From NCBI GenBank assembly GCA_007131895.1, contig SLPR01000254.1, positions 1 through 31,903 on the forward strand: DNA of 31,903 bases, read 5' to 3'. Within the stretch, counting starts at the first letter, position 1, and every line of letters starts with the position of its first letter. The DNA is from Bacteroidales bacterium (lineage in GTDB: Bacteria > Bacteroidota > Bacteroidia > Bacteroidales > UBA7960). The notes under the pieces are model-generated. The model ran no database searches. It saw only the letters and a list, made by a program, of their open reading frames with translations, and was not told the DNA's origin. Shown piece after piece: positions 7,660-19,614 of this stretch. The position numbers were made by a program, and so were the translations under genes.

Positions 7660-9276
7660 ATGAAAGATGCGAAGGAAAAAAAAGGAGCAGTGGCACCTAA
7701 AAAGAACAAGTACTTTGAAATAGATCCCTGGGTTTTCTGGCCCTCGTCTGTTTTGATCGTGTTTTTTATTGCTGTCACTCTGCTGGTGGGTGAGCCTATG
7801 GAGCGGGTTTTTGCCAGTATTCAGAACAATATTTCAGAGTTTGGAGGCTGGTTTTTCGTGTTGGCCGTAAATATTTTTCTGATTTTTTCTCTCTCCATTG
7901 CCTTCAGCAAGTTTGGGAATATCCGGCTGGGAGGACGAACGGCCAAGCCGGAGTTTAAAAAGATATCGTGGTTTGCCATGTTGTTCAGTGCCGGTATGGG
8001 AATCGGGATTTTATTCTGGAGTGTGGGTGAGCCGGTATTGCATTATGTCAATCCTCCTGCAGGGCCGGGAGAAACCGTCGAAGCTGCCCGCAAGTCCATG
8101 CAATTCACCTTTTTACACTGGGGTTTGCATGCATGGGGCATTTATGCTTTGGTGGGAATGTCGCTGGCTTTTTTTACTTTCAATAAGAAACTCCCGCTAA
8201 CTATCAGTTCGGTTTTTCATCCTCTAATCGGCGATGGGATTCACGGCAAACTGGGTAAATCCATCAACGTATTGGCTGTAGTAGCCACACTCTTTGGTTT
8301 GGCCACATCACTGGGAATGGGAGTACAGCAGGTAAGTGCCGGTCTGAACCATTTGCTGGGTTGGCCCGACAATACCAATATGCAGGTTATTCTTATTGGT
8401 GTTATAACCCTGGCAGCTACCGGCTCAGTGGTGGCAGGGCTGAGCCATGGGGTAAAACGTTTGAGTCAGCTCAACATAATTATCGGAGCTTTTTTCTTGT
8501 TGTTTATGCTCATTGTGGGGCCTTCCCTGTTTATCTTCAGCTCGTTTGTGCAAAATATAGGAGGGTATCTGCAAAACTTTTTTGAGTTGAGTTTCTGGAC
8601 AGAAACCTATACCCAGTCTGACTGGCAAAAAAGCTGGACTGTTTTTTACTGGGCCTGGTGGATCAGCTGGTCTCCTTTTGTGGGGATGTTTATTGCCCGT
8701 ATTTCGCGCGGTCGCACCATTCGTGAGTTTATTCTTGGGGTGTTGATTGTACCCACCATTCTTACCTTTTTGTGGTTGTCGGCCTTTGGGGGTTCGGCAC
8801 TTTTCCTGGAGCTTAATGGACTGGCCAATATAACGGATGCGGTGCAAAATAATGTGGCCACTTCACTCTTTGTTTTGCTGGACCAGTTTCCCATTGGTGC
8901 CTTTACTTCTGTTGTTGGAATTATCCTGGTGACCAGCTTCTTTATTACCTCTTCCGATTCCGGGTCGCTGGTGATTGACAGCCTCACAGCAGGAGGGAAG
9001 CTGGATGCTCCTGTTACGCAGAGAGTGTTCTGGGCCCTTACAGAAGGGGGTGTTGCTGCAGTACTGCTCATTGGTGGAGGACTGGGGGCTTTGCAAACAG
9101 CCGCGATCACTACCGGCCTGCCATTTACCATTATTTTGCTATTAATGGCATACAGCCTCACCAAAGGTCTTTCGCAGGAGCATTACAAACTGATGAGGTA
9201 CGACTTGGAGAAGGAGCGGAAATCTTACCTGGATATCGTAACCGATGTTGTATCTAAAAGAGAAAAAAAATCCTAA
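7660..9276 (+). CDS. BCCT-family transporter, Na+-coupled glycine betaine type (OpuD/BetP-like)
   Basis: LFSAGMGIG (Gly, not the Asp of H+-coupled choline carrier BetT), HWGLHAW, WTVFYWAWWISWSPFVG aromatic box, FFITSSDS Na2-site motif. Confidence 0.93.
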   Translation: MKDAKEKKGAVAPKKNKYFEIDPWVFWPSSVLIVFFIAVTLLVGEPMERVFASIQNNISEFGGWFFVLAVNIFLIFSLSIAFSKFGNIRLGGRTAKPEFKKISWFAMLFSAGMGIGILFWSVGEPVLHYVNPPAGPGETVEAARKSMQFTFLHWGLHAWGIYALVGMSLAFFTFNKKLPLTISSVFHPLIGDGIHGKLGKSINVLAVVATLFGLATSLGMGVQQVSAGLNHLLGWPDNTNMQVILIGVITLAATGSVVAGLSHGVKRLSQLNIIIGAFFLLFMLIVGPSLFIFSSFVQNIGGYLQNFFELSFWTETYTQSDWQKSWTVFYWAWWISWSPFVGMFIARISRGRTIREFILGVLIVPTILTFLWLSAFGGSALFLELNGLANITDAVQNNVATSLFVLLDQFPIGAFTSVVGIILVTSFFITSSDSGSLVIDSLTAGGKLDAPVTQRVFWALTEGGVAAVLLIGGGLGALQTAAITTGLPFTIILLLMAYSLTKGLSQEHYKLMRYDLEKERKSYLDIVTDVVSKREKKS

Positions 9277-11305: not shown

Positions 11306-13990
11306 TTAATTCCCTTTGATTTTAAGGACAATAAACTTCTCCAGTTCTACCACTATAAAAACCAGCAGACCTGCGGCTAAAGGATAAAGCCAATAGCTTG
11401 CATCAATTGCTGCTGAATCAAAAGTCCTGTTCATAAAGGGAACATAAACAAACAAAAGCTGGAAACCAATGAGAACACCCACAGCTATAAATGCTTTAAT
11501 ATTGCTAAAGAATCCTTTACCGATAGTGGGGTTTTTGATTTTTCTGCAGTTGAAAAGGTAGAATAACTGGCCGGCTACCAGGGTGTTAACAGCAATGGTC
11601 TGAGCGATTTCTATACTTACATCGAGAGATTGCATGTATCTGAATATACCCATGGTCATGCCAGCAATAAGAAGAGAAACAAAAACGATTCGCCAGATGA
11701 ATAATTTGCCAAGGATAGGCTCGTCTGCTTTGCGTGGGGGGCGCTCCATCACTGTCTCTTCCATGGGCTCAAAAGATAGAGCCAGCCCGAGGGTAACCGC
11801 TGTCACCATATTTATCCATAATATCTGAGCCGGTGCAATGGGCATAGTGATGCCCAGCAATATAGCCACCATTAGCACCAGGGATTCAGCACCATTGGTG
11901 GGCAGGAGAAATAAGATGGTTTTTCGGATATTGTCGTAAACGGTTCTTCCTTCTTCAATGGCGTTTACGATAGAAGCAAAGTTATCATCGGCCAGTACCA
12001 TTTCCGATGCATCTTTACTGACTTCCGATCCCTTTATTCCCATTGCGATTCCGATATTGGCTTTTTTCAATGCCGGGGCATCATTTACACCATCACCGGT
12101 CATGGCAGTAAGTTTGTCGTTGGCTTGAAGAGCAGTAACAAGACGAAGTTTGTGCTCGGGGCTCGTGCGCGCATATACATCGTATTCTTTGCCTATCTGC
12201 TGCATTTTTTCGTCGCTCATCTCCTCCAGCTCTTTGCCGGTCATGACCTTTTCGCCATCTCCAATGCCTATTTCTTTGCCTATGGCTTTAGCCGTTATGG
12301 CATGATCTCCGGTAATCATCTTCACTTCCACCCCGGCTTCTTTACATTCTTTTACAGCATCTATCACTTCCTGTCGCGGGGGATCGATAATTCCTATTAC
12401 ACCCAGAAATACCTGGTTTTTTTCCACTTCCTCTTTTTCCAACTCAGAGCGGTTTTTATCTGCCTTTCGAAAGGCTGCTGCCAGCATTCTTTGTCCATCG
12501 GCTGCTACCTCTTCCATTTTCTCTTCCCAGAAATCTTTGTCGATGTCCTGTTCTTCCCCTCCGGCATATTGTTTATCGCACATCTCAAGCAATCTTTCTG
12601 GAGCTCCGGTCATAAATATGAAAACTTCATCTTCTACTTTGTTGAGTGTAGCCATGTATTTGTGCTCAGATTCAAATGGAATCTGATCGATACGCTCAGG
12701 TTTAAAATCTTTTAAACCAGCCTTGTAGCTCAGGGTGAGGAGAGCTCCTTCGGTTGGAGTGCCGCTAAGTTTCCATTCATCGTCTTCCTCCTTGTTTATT
12801 TCAGCATTGTTACAGGTTCGGATGGCTTGCAGCAATTTCAGCAGTACCTTATCCTCTTTGGGATCAATCTCTTCGTCATCCATGAGAATTTTTCCTTCCG
12901 GTTCATAACCTGACCCTTCCACCTTATATTGCTTCTCAGCTGTCACAATGGTTTTGGCAGTCATCTCGTTGCGTGTGAGGGTGCCGGTTTTATCAGAACA
13001 GATCACATTTACTGCCCCTAAGGTTTCAACCGAGGGTAAGCGGCGAATAATGGCATTTCGCTTTGCCATGCGCTGCACTCCAATGGCCAGGGTAATGGTC
13101 ATAATGGCTGGCAAGCCTGAGGGGATTGCAGCTACAATCAGAGCAATGGCTGCCATAAAAAGTTCAGTGATATCATATTCTACAACAAAGTAACCATAAG
13201 CAAAAAATGCTGCGGTAATTCCAAGAATTACCAATGATAACCATTTGCCAAACTTGTCAATTTTCTGTAGCAAAGGGGTGGTGATGTCTTCTACCTCTGA
13301 AATCATCTTATTGATTTTGCCGATTTCAGAATCAGATCCTATTGCTACGACAACCCCTGTGGCCTTGCCATATGTTACTATTGTACCCGAAAAGGCCATT
13401 GAGGATTGATCTCCTATAATGGCATCTTCTTCTGCCGGTTCCGTTGATTTCTTAACTGCTGTGGACTCTCCCGTAAGCGGAGACTCTTCCACCTGGAAGT
13501 CTTTGGATTTGAATAAACGGATGTCTGCCGGTATTTTATCCCCTGATTTTAAAACCACCACATCTCCCGGAACAAGGTCTTCGGCGTCAATCGTTTTTTT
13601 CTCTCCATCTCTCAATACTTCTGCTTCAAGAGAAAGCATTTCCCGGATGTCTTCCAGTGCCTTTTCCGCTTTGCCTTCCTGGATAAAGCCAATCACAGCA
13701 TTGATGATGACTACTGCAAGGATTATCCACATGTCGGTATAGTGTTCGATCAAAGCCGTGATGATAGCTGCTGCAAGGAGCAAATAGATGAGTACATTCT
13801 GAAACTGCATCAACAGGCGCTTCCACCAGGGCCGCTTTTTCCCTTTGGGCAGCTCGTTTTTGCCATATTTCTCCTGCCGTTTTCCAACTTCTTCTTTGTT
13901 AAGGCCCTCATCTTTGCTGGTGTTGAATTCTTTCACCACCTCTTCTGCTTCCATGGAATGCCATTTGGTCTTCTTGTTGTCTTTCGCCAT
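11306..13990 (-). CDS. Cation-transporting P-type ATPase (type II, CtpF/Pma1-like), copy 1, atypical PSGL in M4
   Basis: TGES, DKTGTLT, KMITGD, TGDGVNDAPAL intact; M5 PTNGAE, M6 QILWINMVTA; M4 reads AIPSGLP. Confidence 0.95.
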   Translation of the reverse strand: MAKDNKKTKWHSMEAEEVVKEFNTSKDEGLNKEEVGKRQEKYGKNELPKGKKRPWWKRLLMQFQNVLIYLLLAAAIITALIEHYTDMWIILAVVIINAVIGFIQEGKAEKALEDIREMLSLEAEVLRDGEKKTIDAEDLVPGDVVVLKSGDKIPADIRLFKSKDFQVEESPLTGESTAVKKSTEPAEEDAIIGDQSSMAFSGTIVTYGKATGVVVAIGSDSEIGKINKMISEVEDITTPLLQKIDKFGKWLSLVILGITAAFFAYGYFVVEYDITELFMAAIALIVAAIPSGLPAIMTITLAIGVQRMAKRNAIIRRLPSVETLGAVNVICSDKTGTLTRNEMTAKTIVTAEKQYKVEGSGYEPEGKILMDDEEIDPKEDKVLLKLLQAIRTCNNAEINKEEDDEWKLSGTPTEGALLTLSYKAGLKDFKPERIDQIPFESEHKYMATLNKVEDEVFIFMTGAPERLLEMCDKQYAGGEEQDIDKDFWEEKMEEVAADGQRMLAAAFRKADKNRSELEKEEVEKNQVFLGVIGIIDPPRQEVIDAVKECKEAGVEVKMITGDHAITAKAIGKEIGIGDGEKVMTGKELEEMSDEKMQQIGKEYDVYARTSPEHKLRLVTALQANDKLTAMTGDGVNDAPALKKANIGIAMGIKGSEVSKDASEMVLADDNFASIVNAIEEGRTVYDNIRKTILFLLPTNGAESLVLMVAILLGITMPIAPAQILWINMVTAVTLGLALSFEPMEETVMERPPRKADEPILGKLFIWRIVFVSLLIAGMTMGIFRYMQSLDVSIEIAQTIAVNTLVAGQLFYLFNCRKIKNPTIGKGFFSNIKAFIAVGVLIGFQLLFVYVPFMNRTFDSAAIDASYWLYPLAAGLLVFIVVELEKFIVLKIKGN

Positions 13991-14093
13991 ACAAATGATA
14001 TTTTTAAGGTTTTCAGTAAATAGAGGTAAAATGCTAATTTAAGTAAATTAATGCTTTACTGAGCAATGAAATTTGTTGTTTTTGTTTATTTCA

Positions 14094-14101
14094 CAAAGAT
14101 A
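14094..14101 (-). promoter_or_regulatory. -7 element (TATCTTTG) for ATPase copy 1
   Basis: Exact TAnnTTTG on the minus strand, about 100 nt upstream of ATG 13990 and just after the copy-2 terminator. Confidence 0.55.
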
Positions 14102-14110
14102 AGAAGTCCT

Positions 14111-14142
14111 AAAAAAAGGGGCATGACAGCTGGTCATACCCC
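14111..14142 (-). terminator. Intrinsic terminator after ATPase copy 2
   Basis: Minus strand GGGGTATGAC-CAGCT-GTCATGCCCC then T7. A second 11-bp hairpin lies at 14205-14231. Confidence 0.7.
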
Positions 14143-14294
14143 CACATTTGTATTTTTATTCATCCAGGTAACCCTGCCCTTTGAATACTATCTATCGTTG
14201 AAAGAAGCTATTTCTTTTCAAGAAATAGCTTTATTGTGTTGACTTTCCGTAATTCTTATATAAGTCAAACTTTCAAACGAGAATATAGAAAATA

Positions 14295-16991
14295 TTAGCT
14301 TGCGTACCCTTTAATTTTAAGAATGATAAATTTCTCCAGTTCTACCACGATAAATACCACTAAGCCGGCGGCCAGAGGGTAGAGCCAATATCCTGCTTCA
14401 ATGGCTTCTGTTCCGAAAAGCGTATTCATAAATGGGACATACACAAAAAGCAGTTGCAGAACTATCAGCCCTGCAGCCGCAATAAAAGCGTATTTATTGG
14501 CGAAGAATCCTTTGCCTATACTGAGTTCTTTTATTTTGCGGCAATTGAACAGATAAAACAATTGTCCTGCCACTAACGTGTTCACTGCAACCGTGCGTGC
14601 AAATTCCACACTTACATCCAGCGATTGCATGTATTTAAACATGGCCAGGGTCATGCCTCCAATAAGAACAGATACAAAAGCAATGCGCCAGATAAAAATT
14701 TTGCCCAGGATGGATTCTCCCGGTTTTCGTGGAGGTAGCGTCATTACCTTATCTTCCATGGGTTCAAAGGACAGGGCCAGCGCCAGGGTAACGGCTGTCA
14801 CCATGTTTACCCATAGAATCTGTGCAGGGGTAATGGGCATGATGATACCAAGCAAAATGGCCGACATCAGCACCAGGGCTTCTGCGCCATTGGTGGGGAG
14901 GATAAACAGAAGTGCTTTGCGGATATTGTCGTAAACGGTACGACCTTCCTCAATGGCATTTACAATGGAGGCGAAATTATCATCGGCCAGCACCATTTCG
15001 GAAGCATCCTTGGTTACTTCGGTACCTTTGATGCCCATGGCAATGCCGATATTGGCTTTCTTCAGTGCCGGAGCATCATTTACTCCGTCGCCGGTCATGG
15101 CTGCAAGCTTTCCGTTTTCCTGCAGTGCTGTAACCAATCTTAGTTTGTGCTCGGGGCTGGTACGTGCATAAATGTCGTATTCGCTGACAATTTTACGCAT
15201 TTCTTCGTCGCTCATCTCTTCCAGTTCCTTGCCGGTCATGGCTTTCTCTCCATCGCCAATGCCCAGCTCCTTGCCAATAGCTTTGGCGGTAATAGCATGG
15301 TCGCCGGTAATCATTTTCACTTCTACACCGGCTTCCTTGCATTCCTTGATGGCTTCCACCACTTCGCTGCGGGGTGGGTCAATGATGCCTATTATACCCA
15401 GGAAGGTTTTGCTTTTTTCCAGGTATTCTTTATCTATTTCGGTGCGGCTGCTGTCGGTTTTTTTAAAAGCAGCGCCCAGCATGCGTTGTCCGCCTGCCGC
15501 CACTTCTTCCATTTTTTTCTCCCAGTATGCCTTGTCCAGATCTGCTTCTCCTTCGGCAGTATATTGCTTGTTGCACATATCCATAACCCTCTCCGGTGCA
15601 CCTGTCATGAATACGTACACTTCATCTTCCACCTTGTTGAGGGTGGCCATGTACTTATGGTCGGATTCAAAGGGGATATTGTCAATACGTTCGGGTTTGA
15701 AATCCTTTAATCCTGCTTTATAGCTCAGGGTAAGCAAGGCCCCTTCGGTGGGTGTGCCGCTGAGCTTCCATATGCCATCTTCTCCCTCACTGATTTCCGA
15801 GTTGTTGCTCGTGCGGATGGTTTGCAGCAATTGATAAAGTACTTTGTCTTCTTTGACGTCAACTTCTTTGTCGTCCAGAAGAATTTTCCCTTCCGGTTCG
15901 TAACCTGTTCCTTCCACCTTGTATTGCTTTTCTGCTGTAACGATGGTTTTGGCGGTCATTTCGTTGCGTGTAAGGGTACCTGTTTTGTCCGAACAGATTA
16001 CATTTACTGCACCTAATGTTTCTACCGAGGGCAAACGACGAATGATAGCATTTCGGGCTGCCATACGCTGCACTCCCATGGCCAGGGTGATGGTCATAAT
16101 AGCCGGCAACCCCTCAGGAATGGAGGCCACTATCAGCCCGATTGCTGCAAGGAAAAGTTCGTTTAGCTCATAATCTCCAAAGAAATAACCATAAGCGAAA
16201 AATGCTGAGGTAACTGCAAGGATTATTACGGATAACCATTTTCCGAATTTTTCTATTTGTTGCAGCAGAGGAGTGGTTATTTTCTCTACTTCAGAAATCA
16301 TCGTGTTGATTTTTCCCAGCTCTGTATCACTGCCAGTAGCCACAACTACACCTGTTGCTTTGCCATAGGTAACTGCCGTGCCCGAAAAAGCCATTGAAAG
16401 CTGATCGCCAATGGTGGCATCCGCACTAACGGCATCAGCCGATTTTTCCACAGCAGTGGATTCACCCGTCAGGGGAGATTCCTCCACCCGCAAATCCTTG
16501 GATTTGAAGAGTCGGATGTCGGCAGGTATTTTGTCTCCCGATTTCAAGAAGACAATATCTCCGGGAACCAATTCCTCGGCTTCGATGGTTGCTTTCTCTC
16601 CATCCCTGATTACCACTGCTTCAAGAGAGAGCATATTGCGAATCCCTTCCAGTGCTTTTTCGGCTTTTCCTTCCTGGATAAAGCCAATGAGCGCATTGAT
16701 GATTACAACGGCCAGAATTACCCAGGTATCAACCCAGTGATCCATCAGGGCTGTTATCACCGCTGCGGCCATCAGCACATATATCAATACATTGTGAAAC
16801 TGGAGCATCAATCGAACTAACCAGCTTTGCTTCTTTCCTTTGGGCAGCTCGTTTCTGCCATGTTCCTCCAGCCTCTTGCTCACTTCATCCTTGTTCAGAC
16901 CCTCAGATTCACGGGTGTCGAACGCTTTTATCACCTCTTCTGCTTCAATGGAATGCCAGCGGGCTTTCTTTTTTTCCTTTTCTTCTGCCAT
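14295..16991 (-). CDS. Cation-transporting P-type ATPase (type II, CtpF/Pma1-like), copy 2, canonical PEGL
   Basis: TGES, SIPEGLP, DKTGTLT, TGDGVNDAPAL; collinear and highly similar to copy 1 along its length. Confidence 0.95.
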   Translation of the reverse strand: MAEEKEKKKARWHSIEAEEVIKAFDTRESEGLNKDEVSKRLEEHGRNELPKGKKQSWLVRLMLQFHNVLIYVLMAAAVITALMDHWVDTWVILAVVIINALIGFIQEGKAEKALEGIRNMLSLEAVVIRDGEKATIEAEELVPGDIVFLKSGDKIPADIRLFKSKDLRVEESPLTGESTAVEKSADAVSADATIGDQLSMAFSGTAVTYGKATGVVVATGSDTELGKINTMISEVEKITTPLLQQIEKFGKWLSVIILAVTSAFFAYGYFFGDYELNELFLAAIGLIVASIPEGLPAIMTITLAMGVQRMAARNAIIRRLPSVETLGAVNVICSDKTGTLTRNEMTAKTIVTAEKQYKVEGTGYEPEGKILLDDKEVDVKEDKVLYQLLQTIRTSNNSEISEGEDGIWKLSGTPTEGALLTLSYKAGLKDFKPERIDNIPFESDHKYMATLNKVEDEVYVFMTGAPERVMDMCNKQYTAEGEADLDKAYWEKKMEEVAAGGQRMLGAAFKKTDSSRTEIDKEYLEKSKTFLGIIGIIDPPRSEVVEAIKECKEAGVEVKMITGDHAITAKAIGKELGIGDGEKAMTGKELEEMSDEEMRKIVSEYDIYARTSPEHKLRLVTALQENGKLAAMTGDGVNDAPALKKANIGIAMGIKGTEVTKDASEMVLADDNFASIVNAIEEGRTVYDNIRKALLFILPTNGAEALVLMSAILLGIIMPITPAQILWVNMVTAVTLALALSFEPMEDKVMTLPPRKPGESILGKIFIWRIAFVSVLIGGMTLAMFKYMQSLDVSVEFARTVAVNTLVAGQLFYLFNCRKIKELSIGKGFFANKYAFIAAAGLIVLQLLFVYVPFMNTLFGTEAIEAGYWLYPLAAGLVVFIVVELEKFIILKIKGYAS

Positions 16992-17118
16992 ATTCTATTT
17001 TGTTTTAACTGTTAAGTTGCATCATTTGTAATGACGGAATGCTAATTTAATGAATTAATTGCTTTGACAAGCATGGCAATACTGTGTTTTGTATTATTTT
17101 ACAATGCCAGGGAGATGC

Positions 17119-17163
17119 AAAAAAAGAGTGAGGGCATGACCTAAGACCATGCCCTCACTTTTT
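17119..17163. terminator. Intrinsic terminator downstream of the DEAD-box helicase
   Basis: GTGAGGGCATG / CATGCCCTCAC stem flanked by A- and T-runs. Confidence 0.75.
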
Positions 17164-17359: not shown

Positions 17360-19027
17360 TTAGTTCCGCGCAATAGAAAGCATTACCTTCTTACCTTTGA
17401 TGGTATTTTTGTTCATGCCCTTGAGTACTTTTCTTACCTGGGCTTCGGAGATTTCAAAATAACTGAAATGGTCAAACATATCAATCACGCCGATTTGGTT
17501 GCCAGGGATTTTGCATTCGCCTGTGATGGCACCCACAATGTCACCGGGTTTGATTTTGTCTTTCTTACCCAAACCAAGATGCATCCTGATTTTGGGACCA
17601 TTGTCTGATTCATATCCTCTTTTGCCACCGCCATTGCGTTCGGGTCTGTCGGGTCTTTCAGGTCTTTCTTTTCTCTCTGCTCTTGGTTTCTCCTGGAAGG
17701 GTTTTGGTTCTTTCAGGCTGATTCCTTTTTCATCCAGCACCTTTTTTAGCAGGCAAGCTGCCAGCAGATGGGGTTCAAACCCTTTCTCGTACATATCCTG
17801 CAGCACTTTTTCGTAGTCCTTGAGGTTGTTTTCAGTGGCAATGGTCATCAGAGAGCTTTCCAGTCGTGTAAGGTTCGATTGCATCAGTTCCTGGTAGGAG
17901 GGGAGATTGCCCTTCATGATTTTCATCTTGATAAAACGTTCCAGTTCGAAGATTTTGCGGTCGTCTTTGCGGGATTCGGCAAAGCTGAATGCACGTCCGG
18001 TTTTCCCGGCACGGCCCGTGCGACCAATGCGGTGCACATAATATTCATTGTCGTGGGGCAGATCAAAATTGAATACTGCATCTACGTTGTTTACGTCCAG
18101 TCCACGTGCTGCCACATCGGTGGCAACCAGCACATTGATTTCTGCATTCTTAAATCTTCCCAGTACCTGGTTTCTCATGCCCTGGCTCAAATCGCCGTGC
18201 AATGCATCTGCCTTAATGCCTGCCTTGCGCAGCTCTTCGGTAACACTGTCGGTTCTGGCCTTGGTATTGCAGAATACCAGTGATAATCTCAGTTCGTACA
18301 ATTGTATCAGATCCGAAATGAGGCGGTTCTTTTTGCCACCGCGGGTTTCAAAATAAATCTGTTCAATGGTAGAGGCCGTAACATTCTGATCGGCCACTTT
18401 GATAATTTTTGGGTTGTGGAGAAATTTCCTGCTGATATCCAGTATGGGTTTCGACATGGTGGCCGAAAACATTACCGTTTGTTTGTCAGAAGGAGTTCCT
18501 TCAAGAATGGTTTCCATATCTTCACGGAAGCCCATGTTGAGCATTTCGTCGGCTTCGTCCATAACAGCCACCTTCAGTCCGGTGATGTTCAGACTTCCTC
18601 TTCTGAGGTGGTCCATGATACGTCCGGGAGTTCCTACAACGATTTGTGAACCGTCTTTCAGTCCTCGCATCTGGCGCGACATTGAGTCACCTCCATAGAT
18701 GGAAAGCACTTTGATGCCTCTTTTGTAGGCCGACATTTTGGATAATTCGTCTGCAATCTGCACGCAAAGCTCGCGTGTGGGGCAGAGGATAAGGGCCTGA
18801 ACGCGCCTGTCGTTCAAGTCAATTTTCTCAAGGATAGGCAAACCAAAAGCCGCCGTTTTACCGGTGCCTGTCTGGGCCTGCCCCACCATATCGTGTCCTT
18901 CCAGCATAACCGGAATGGATTGTTCCTGGATAGGGGTGGGCGTTTCATAGCCCATTTCTGTAATGCCTCTCAATACTTCTTCGCTGAGAAATAGATCGGT
19001 GAATGTGTTTTCTAAAGTAGTAATCAT
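17360..19027 (-). CDS. deaD: DEAD-box RNA helicase with C-terminal DbpA-type RNA-binding domain (DeaD/CsdA-like)
   Basis: Q motif PTPIQ, AQTGTGKT, PTREL, TPGR, DEAD, SAT, ARGLD, HRIGRTGRAG; C-terminal GKKDKIKPGDIVGAI domain. ATG 19027 preferred over ORF-track 19072. Confidence 0.92.
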   Translation of the reverse strand: MITTLENTFTDLFLSEEVLRGITEMGYETPTPIQEQSIPVMLEGHDMVGQAQTGTGKTAAFGLPILEKIDLNDRRVQALILCPTRELCVQIADELSKMSAYKRGIKVLSIYGGDSMSRQMRGLKDGSQIVVGTPGRIMDHLRRGSLNITGLKVAVMDEADEMLNMGFREDMETILEGTPSDKQTVMFSATMSKPILDISRKFLHNPKIIKVADQNVTASTIEQIYFETRGGKKNRLISDLIQLYELRLSLVFCNTKARTDSVTEELRKAGIKADALHGDLSQGMRNQVLGRFKNAEINVLVATDVAARGLDVNNVDAVFNFDLPHDNEYYVHRIGRTGRAGKTGRAFSFAESRKDDRKIFELERFIKMKIMKGNLPSYQELMQSNLTRLESSLMTIATENNLKDYEKVLQDMYEKGFEPHLLAACLLKKVLDEKGISLKEPKPFQEKPRAERKERPERPDRPERNGGGKRGYESDNGPKIRMHLGLGKKDKIKPGDIVGAITGECKIPGNQIGVIDMFDHFSYFEISEAQVRKVLKGMNKNTIKGKKVMLSIARN

Positions 19028-19332
19028 AATTGTAATTTGGATGCCAGGCACGCGGATTTCATCCCAGACCATGCCATGGCTGTTGATTTGAATATTAATA
19101 AAATGGGTTAAAGACGGGTTGAGGTGTTCGGGTCAGATACGAAATCGATCTTAAGAAAAAGCCGTCTTGTGAAATAGTTAAAAGGAAAGATAATCTTTGC
19201 ATCTTTCACGGTTTGTTGATGGGTAGTGGTCTACCTCGTATTTAAGCATAAAAACAATCATTAGATAATAAGTCGCATCCGGCTTTACCCTAATATGTTT
19301 TTATACACAACAAGCCTGACGCAAAAGCGGTG

Positions 19333-19429: not shown

Positions 19430-19614
19430 GGTCCCTGAGCCTGTCGAAGGGACGGGTAGTGCATGCGTGGTTTCGAAATGCTCAACCACCAGAGCGTCTG
19501 TCCCTGAGCAGTTCGACATGCTCACTGTAGCACCTGTCGAAGGGATATATTTTGCAGTGGTGGTTTCGACAAGCTCAACCACCGGGGAGGGTGGTCCCTG
19601 AGCTTGTCGAAGGG
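19430..19614. repeat. BIME-like cluster of alternating REP-like palindromes
   Basis: GTCCCTGAGC(C/T)TGTCGAAGGG at 19431-19451, 19500-19544 (interrupted) and 19594-19614, alternating with GTGGTTTCGA.A.GCTCAACCAC at 19467-19489 and 19560-19582. Confidence 0.85.

Follow-up and report, generated by a model that had tools for sequence, protein, structure and literature searches.

Is a cation pump that has lost the conserved glutamate of its fourth membrane helix (M4) still a pump? The question is raised by two genes in a 31,903-nucleotide stretch of DNA (hereafter the window), positions 1 to 31,903 of contig SLPR01000254.1 from a Bacteroidales bacterium (assembly GCA_007131895.1). The two genes, copy 1 and copy 2, are arranged head to tail on the minus strand of the window and encode P2-type cation ATPases (Table 1). 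A preliminary description had pointed out that copy 1 reads PSGL in M4 where copy 2 reads PEGL, and the re-read codons and translations bear this out. The glutamate of this motif has been described as conserved across all P2 pumps and as essential for ion binding and gating (PMC11977196). We conclude that copy 1 is probably a working P2-type cation pump with an altered ion site, as judged from its sequence, and not a decaying copy.

On the minus strand, copy 1 was read as ATT GTA GCT GCA ATC CCC TCA GGC TTG CCA (IVAAIPSGLP) and copy 2 as ATA GTG GCC TCC ATT CCT GAG GGG TTG CCG (IVASIPEGLP). Positions 13112-13123 hold Pro290 to Leu293 of copy 1. In the structure-match alignment Ser291 was aligned to the PEGL glutamate of human SPCA1, which supports the earlier equation of this residue with SERCA E309; its counterparts are SERCA Glu309, SPCA1 Glu308 and LMCA1 Glu292. 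The same CCC TCA GGC was present in two other strains, at loci L001 (European Nucleotide Archive ERZ27301261) and L002 (GCA_007119875.1), which differ from the window by 27 and 34 single-nucleotide polymorphisms (SNPs), respectively, and are 99.75-99.77% identical to it. Their proteins differ from copy 1 by one and two residues and belong to the same 90% cluster. The gene order DEAD helicase, copy 2, copy 1, OpuAC, Usp and BCCT is common to both and to the window. Furthermore, in run X2, which comes from another sample, a contig of 1673 nt matched 12980-14652 without difference, TCA included, and no variants at 13112-13123 were found in any run compared, the comparison being of contigs and not of raw reads. 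An assembly or sequencing error at TCA, which had been considered, can be practically discounted at the contig level, since three assemblies that differ by 27-34 SNPs and the contig from the other sample all agree.

The two proteins share 79% amino acid identity over 891 residues and their genes 74.5% nucleotide identity, with no gaps. Both scored above the cut-offs for the Pfam domains Cation_ATPase_N, E1-E2_ATPase, Hydrolase and Cation_ATPase_C. The motifs expected of the P-type ATPase superfamily, TGES, DKTGT, DPPR, TGD and GDGVND (in TGDGVND), were all intact in both copies, and the Asn/Glu of M5 (PTNGAE) was kept in both, as stated before. Of the marks of P2-type cation ATPases, the PEGL glutamate was present in copy 2 and replaced in copy 1 (PSGL). 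Ten membrane helices were predicted, and the domain order is as in P2A pumps. The scores for TIGR01494 (P-type ATPase superfamily, HAD-IC) were 327 and 330 against a cut-off of 62. For TIGR01522 (P2A/SPCA, PMR1-type) copy 1 scored 702.9 and copy 2 681.2, below the equivalog cut-off of 798.3, and for TIGR01523 (P2D/ENA) 541.2 and 511.0, below 645.05. None of the curated NCBIfam equivalog cut-offs was reached by either copy, the PMR1-type being the nearest. The top matches among solved structures were SPCA1, LMCA1 and SERCA1a (E about 1e-169). A third paralogue on another contig (G000:C495:3517-5358) reads IPEGLP, is 59% identical to copy 2 and ends at the contig edge.

Copy 1 is an old paralogue and not a recent duplicate. 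Between the two copies the nonsynonymous divergence (dN) was 0.133 and the synonymous divergence (dS) about 2.2, that is, saturated; copy 2 and its orthologues were separated by dS of 0.54 (P0005) and 1.34 (P0004). Copy 2 is 93% identical to P0005 and is orthologous to the single gene at the same locus in related species. In a tree with genus-level sampling, copy 1 was sister (support 93/96) to a four-species clade containing copy 2, and the branch lengths from the common node were 0.20 for copy 1 and 0.15 for the path to copy 2. Trees with the two copies as sisters were rejected by the approximately unbiased (AU) test (p 0.004) at a cost of 65 log-likelihood units. The descent of copy 1 from copy 2 that the preliminary description implied was thus not supported, because copy 2 groups with the orthologues of other species. 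When metagenomic rows were added, copy 1 fell within the same 10-row group and adjoined another subgroup (support 84); since its placement shifts in this way, its exact position in the tree is not fixed. The syntenic site holds one ATPase in two related species, and 16 of 21 same-genus genomes gave a match, each with one close homologue that always reads IPEGLP. The most economical interpretation is that a unit including the upstream leader (see below) was duplicated in tandem long ago, the duplication being kept only in this species among those sampled. Alternatively, copy 1 may have been acquired from an unsampled relative.

Copy 1 is kept by purifying selection. The dN/dS ratio was 0.060 between the two copies and 0.068 between copy 1 and P0005, the same level as among orthologues (0.057-0.071), and gave no sign of relaxed selection. 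No stops were found over the 894 codons and no indels relative to copy 2. Among three strains, copy 1 had 20 polymorphic sites, 18 synonymous and two nonsynonymous, and copy 2 had one site. Decay is excluded because dN/dS lies at the orthologue level and polymorphism is mostly synonymous. A redundant duplicate drifting to loss, with the serine as an inactivating hit, would fit the occurrence of PSGL at this locus in one species only, the single gene at the syntenic site in related species, the weak RNA signal described below and a number of conserved-column changes greater than in most homologues. However, synonymous sites are saturated while dN/dS is 0.06, the long reading frame is undamaged, the conserved-column changes are conservative, and other glutamate-less clades persist with dN/dS of 0.08-0.09. 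We therefore regard drift to loss as highly improbable, and the "recently inactivated duplicate" proposed earlier was not borne out.

The loss of the M4 glutamate is far from chance. This residue was present in 117 of the 120 closest cluster representatives (>=70% identity), the remaining three being copy 1, with PSGL, and two sister proteins, one with PQGL and one with PHGL. It was also present in all 150 of the best representatives of 50%-identity clusters, which are 34-53% identical.

An aspartate in M6 is an ion-binding residue in Ca2+, Na+/K+ and H+ pumps of the P2 and P3 groups. At this position Ala731 of copy 1 was aligned to SPCA1 Asp742 (SERCA Asp800). The position was non-acidic throughout the close family, with NMVTAV or NMVTAI in nearly all 120 homologues, and highly variable among the wider 50%-identity representatives (n=150). 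Judging from these alignments, copy 1, copy 2 and the whole close family lack the M6 aspartate. The family retains M4 Glu, M5 Asn699 and Glu702, M6 Asn727 and Thr730, and M8 Gln808. Its site carboxylates are two, M4 Glu and M5 Glu; copy 1 has one, Glu702 in M5. The family-wide absence of the M6 aspartate and the recurrence of glutamate-less M4 motifs in pumps of halophiles, described below, place the serine in a context that the preliminary description did not have.

Copy 1 departed from columns kept in at least 117 of the 120 homologues at 11 positions (V89I, T217I, E291S, G479E, T655S, T719A, V726I, A735G, G776A, R797Q and L843F), two of which, V726I and A735G, are copy-1-specific changes at nearly invariant M6 columns. 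When proteins were ranked by such departures, the glutamate-less ones came top (12, 11 and 10), while longer-branched PEGL proteins had 4-5. The changes in copy 1 are conservative. Membrane helices hold eight of the 11, against an expectation of 30% (binomial p 0.004, with the helix boundaries placed by eye).

Other pumps without the glutamate were sought with a scan for family M4 coding with a base other than G at the first position of the Glu codon, a design blind to Ala, Val, Gly and Asp. Eight loci in species genomes and seven in metagenomes were matched. A second PSGL (codons CCT TCG) was found in a soda-lake Bacteroidales metagenome-assembled genome (MAG) at locus L038/L045; it is 73% identical to copy 1, and no other family member was found in that MAG. 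The genes around it (Yip1, a TonB-dependent receptor, UbiA and DUF92) were uninformative. Bacteroidales PQGL genes fell in the clade of P0091 and P0116, and Ser, Gln or His was found at this M4 position in a Bacteroidales clade. A gammaproteobacterial PQGL clade comprised two Ectothiorhodospiraceae MAGs, Halomonadaceae bacterium KBTZ08 and Halospina denitrificans DSM 15505, and one further PQGL locus was L049. Every replacement found was polar (Ser, Gln or His). A 63-row tree requires at least four separate losses of the glutamate, all of them among Bacteroidales and Gammaproteobacteria that are halophilic or live in soda lakes. An apparent fifth loss proved to be an artefact of the regular expression. 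PSGL thus occurs beyond this genome, and the earlier idea that PSGL-type homologues might form one clade was not supported, since a single origin for copy 1 and L045 was rejected (AU p 0.006). A position of copy 1 within the Bacteroidales glutamate-less clade was likewise rejected (p 0.02); the groups in both tests were named after a tree had been seen.

Where it could be measured, these pumps were also under purifying selection. P0091 and P0116, the Bacteroidales PQGL/PHGL proteins, gave dN/dS of 0.08-0.09 at dS 0.5-0.6, and the PQGL genes of Halospina and the Halomonadaceae bacterium 0.09 at dS 1.3. No other pump gene lies next to P0091. In Halospina denitrificans DSM 15505 two family members, L047 and L050, lie on one contig about 32 kb apart. 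Its PQGL pump (L050) has the M5 Glu; in its PEGL pump (L047) the M5 Glu is changed to Gln and the M6 Thr to Val, and each pump therefore retains one of the two site carboxylates. The M4 position in glutamate-less pumps appears free to vary among polar residues.

Two side observations were made on M4 loci. L044 and L004 (P0116) are 99.9% identical and differ in three codons, all nonsynonymous, one of them at M4 (Gln vs His, CAG/CAT). A 51%-identical homologue, L057 (metagenome contig Ga0306869_1000330, match 469-503 minus), has TAA exactly at the M4 Glu codon. It contains about a dozen in-frame TAA/TAG in the N-terminal 100 codons, its GC content is 28.5%, and its frames are longer under code 6; it is either a broken gene or comes from an organism reading TAA/TAG as sense.

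How the serine codon arose had been answered in the preliminary description by an exact inversion of four bases within an imperfect inverted repeat, one template switch instead of three substitutions. The literal relation holds, as CCCTCAGG is the exact reverse complement of CCTGAGGG of copy 2, but it does not go beyond chance. Because Pro-x-Gly is coded CCN NNN GGN and TC complements GA, any CCY TCN GG inverts to Pro-Glu-Gly. Given the codon usage of this genome, Pro-Glu-Gly results from reverse complementation of 44% of Pro-Ser-Gly codings, and in 6.6% of cases the 8-mer of copy 2 would be expected to be matched exactly. An inverted repeat does flank the site, with 6 of 7 pairs (GCAATCC / GGCTTGC). 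However, it is largely forced by the coding of Ala-Ile-Pro ... Gly-Leu-Pro, the PEGL orthologue L014 has an equally good one, and a repeat finder at seed 6 reported no inverted repeat at the site. Nor is copy 2 the ancestor of copy 1. Its three nearest orthologues read CCY GAA GGN, GAA occurs in 11 of 17 genus members, and the GAG of copy 2 looks derived. From GAA, two point changes through GCA (Ala, the residue that ENA pumps have here) reach TCA with the third-position A kept. Since synonymous sites are saturated (dS about 2.2), the match to the third positions of copy 2 carries little weight. The second PSGL is encoded by CCT TCG, and a single step suffices for the Gln and His variants. A single-step origin of the serine, by inversion of 4-8 bases between CC and GG through a template switch at a quasi-palindrome, would bypass the Ala intermediate, but on this evidence we consider it quite unlikely.

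The regions upstream of the two genes are related. A leader of roughly 170 bp is homologous upstream of copy 1, copy 2 and the three nearest copy 2 orthologues, and it begins with a hairpin and T-run; an A-rich stretch and the 12-mer TAAATTAGCATT are likewise common to these regions. The exact TAAATTAGCATT was also found upstream of orthologues in three related species (L005, L006, L008, L009 and L010) and was absent from the other loci compared. This 12-mer could be an operator or promoter element that the genes have in common. An Rfam scan of the leaders gave nothing credible. The terminator-like hairpin and T-run at 14117-14143 point to separate transcription units for the two copies.

Expression was evaluated from contig depth in one metatranscriptome, likely from the source sample. 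RNA contig depth ranged from 0 to 186 across the window while the DNA run was flat at 5-10, which indicates that the RNA signal is not DNA carry-over. The 5' half of copy 2 was covered by a 1620-nt exact RNA contig at a depth of about 21. For copy 1 only a 151-nt exact contig at depth 3.6 was obtained, and its other RNA consisted of short pieces that may come from other organisms. Copy 1 was thus at most weakly transcribed in this sample. The gene lies within an osmoadaptation cluster (BCCT, Usp and OpuAC), and DNA of the locus was found in soda-lake and alkali-sediment metagenomes.

By analogy with ENA-type pumps, the family probably transports a monovalent cation, most likely Na+. Substrate, stoichiometry and pH link of copy 1 are what we infer in the following scheme. 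The family already lacks the M6 Asp and has the M4 Glu and M5 Glu as its only carboxylates. In copy 1 the M4 carboxylate is replaced by the serine hydroxyl, leaving Glu702 and polar or backbone ligands, with small accompanying changes in M6 and M7 (V726I, A735G, T719A and G776A). Cycling through the aspartyl-phosphate would be retained. The site might then hold fewer monovalent cations or select among them differently, with Na+ the likeliest ion and K+ or H+ possible. Because the E2 half-cycle would have one less protonatable group to neutralise, proton counter-transport could be reduced or absent, and such an ENA-like arrangement would suit a soda-lake organism. The earlier suggestion of a pump with a changed ion site remains the best reading of the intact motifs, the selection and the recurrence, while the substrate and mechanism offered here are conditional on the analogy.

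Under a different view copy 1 is under selection but no longer transports ions normally: it might hydrolyse ATP without coupling, sense ions, or serve copy 2 as a regulatory or structural partner. Purifying selection alone cannot separate transport from another function. Copy 1 always adjoins the canonical copy and gave a low RNA signal, Halospina likewise pairs a PQGL pump with a PEGL pump, and SERCA E309Q binds Ca2+ yet is catalytically incompetent (PMC7313052). In contrast, the residues for phosphorylation and dephosphorylation are all conserved, which would be needless in a pure sensor or scaffold; no second family member was found in the MAG of L045, and P0091 has no adjacent pump. Natural ENA pumps, moreover, work without an M4 Glu (PMC10779151). 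We consider such a role unlikely.

Several points weigh against copy 1 as a working pump with an altered site. The E309Q change in SERCA is a loss of function (PMC7313052, PMC11977196). No orthologue of copy 1 was found among the 16 congeners with a match, and its RNA was limited to the short contig given above. The membrane enrichment of its changes depends on helix boundaries set by eye. Three of the four Glu losses go together with changes of Ala to Gly or Ser at M6 731, 735 and 737, A735G is common to copy 1 and the gammaproteobacterial PQGL clade, and in the close family M6 changes occur in 3 of 3 glutamate-less proteins and rarely among the 117 PEGL proteins; however, co-evolution of M4 291 with these M6 positions was not significant over four independent pairs (p 0.25-0.5), and the same positions also vary in distant PEGL pumps. 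The source annotations of the family disagree (Mg, Ca or K/Na), and a literature search found no characterised bacterial member. Against these points stand the intact catalytic motifs, the purifying selection and the recurrence, and a working pump with an altered ion site remains the reading we favour for copy 1.

A broader proposal is more tentative. Pumps of this family with Ser, Gln or His at M4 could possibly be a recurrent selected class that extrudes Na+ (or K+) by primary transport in the manner of ENA. Having lost protonatable residues of the site, they would turn over without proton counter-transport at the very high external pH that prevails in soda lakes and brines. They would then be a convergent bacterial counterpart of fungal ENA, paired in some genomes with a canonical pump for other conditions.

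Table 1. Coordinates of the pump genes and of associated features in the window
Feature	Position	Strand	Evidence
Copy 1 (P0001), P2-type cation ATPase, 894 aa, M4 motif IPSGLP	11306..13990	minus	translation, Pfam
Copy 2 (P0002), canonical family member, 898 aa, IPEGLP	14295..16991	minus	translation, Pfam, tree
Ser291 codon TCA of copy 1, position of the M4 glutamate	13118..13120	minus	alignment, strains
Glu293 codon GAG of copy 2	16113..16115	minus	sequence
M6 core of copy 1, codons 726-735, INMVTAVTLG	11786..11815	minus	SPCA1 alignment, column statistics
Cluster of 10 strain differences in 42 codons (708-749, M5 to M6)	11744..11869	minus	strain comparison
12-mer TAAATTAGCATT, 40 nt upstream of the copy 1 ATG	14030..14041	minus	
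Terminator-like hairpin, 11 pairs, then T-run, between copies 2 and 1	14117..14143	minus	
12-mer TAAATTAGCATT, 47 nt upstream of the copy 2 ATG	17038..17049	minus	
Hairpin, 15 pairs and T-run, upstream of copy 2, homologous to the one upstream of copy 1	17127..17159	minus	

The strain differences are unevenly placed. About half of the SNPs in the 12-13.5 kb shared with the other strains lie in copy 1, and copy 2 has 0-1. The cluster at 11744-11869 holds ten of the 15-17 copy 1 differences between the window and the two other strains; nine are synonymous and the tenth is V708A. It resembles a tract brought in by recombination from a diverged allele. Conversion by copy 2 was rejected as its source, since the variant bases do not consistently match copy 2. 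Another strain-variable stretch lies just past the helicase gene: at 19433-19614 DNA and RNA contigs and the two other assemblies diverge from the window, L001 and L002 match it only to 19451, and alternative letters fall between 19450 and 19596.

Among the neighbouring genes, the DEAD-box helicase (17360-19072, minus strand, upstream of copy 2) had the deepest RNA contigs in the first 20 kb, at 100-186 compared with 0-21. No metatranscriptome contig was found for the BCCT gene (7660-9276); the downstream OpuAC, in the same apparent operon, had a depth of 5-10.

Pumps without the M4 glutamate thus occur naturally; they are old, under purifying selection and of at least four origins among halophiles and soda-lake bacteria. 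Together with their relatives they form a natural series in which the site has two carboxylates, one, or carboxylates in other places, which bears on how many acids a monovalent P-type pump needs and on whether proton counter-transport is dispensable at high pH. The family is common in Bacteroidales osmoadaptation loci. Two of the hosts, Halospina denitrificans DSM 15505 and Halomonadaceae bacterium KBTZ08, have been cultured or completely sequenced, which makes ordinary genetics and biochemistry possible.

In site chemistry the closest parallel is with the ENA (P2D) pumps of fungi, mosses and protists, such as N. crassa ENA1, which share a neutral M4, no M6 Asp and a kept M5 Glu. Absence of the M6 Asp has been called a hallmark of P2D/ENA (PMC3355532), the TM4 motif of ENA is IPAS (PMC10779151), and the importance of ENA pumps shows where both pH and Na+ are high (PMC7600311). 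Of the two ENA site features, the neutral M6 residue is present in both copies (Ala731) and the non-Glu TM4 residue in copy 1 only (Ser291). Copy 1 differs in being bacterial, closer in sequence to the SPCA/LMCA1 type and below the TIGR01523 cut-off; its motif is PSGL and not PAS(L).

The P2A Ca2+ pumps SPCA1, LMCA1 and SERCA1a resemble the pair in structure matches, domain order and the PEGL of copy 2. However, both copies lack the Ca2+-binding M6 Asp, copy 1 also lacks the gating Glu, and both are below the TIGR01522 cut-off. A PEGL in TM4 with a non-acidic TM6 Asp position, as in copy 2 and the family, is also seen in the P6 pump CtpE of M. tuberculosis (PMC10654040), a likeness of pattern only. 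CtpE has Ile at the TM6 position and is a reported Ca2+ uptake pump, and Bacteroidota are not among the listed P6 phyla (PMC10654040).

Mutants of Na,K-ATPase Glu327 and SERCA Glu309 concern the same position as Ser291 and show the effects of carboxylate loss. In Na,K-ATPase, E327Q impairs Na+-dependent phosphorylation less than E327D, so that removal of the charge is milder than a change of volume (bioRxiv 10.1101/106724). These are laboratory changes in fully acidic sites, whereas the change in copy 1 is natural, old and accompanied by other site changes. A natural comparison comes from the P5 ATPases, which are eukaryotic and belong to another subfamily with another motif. P5A and P5B pumps are split by an acidic loss in TM4, PP(D/E)LPxE vs PP(A/V)LPAx, and this has been taken as a change of substrate (PMC6884021).

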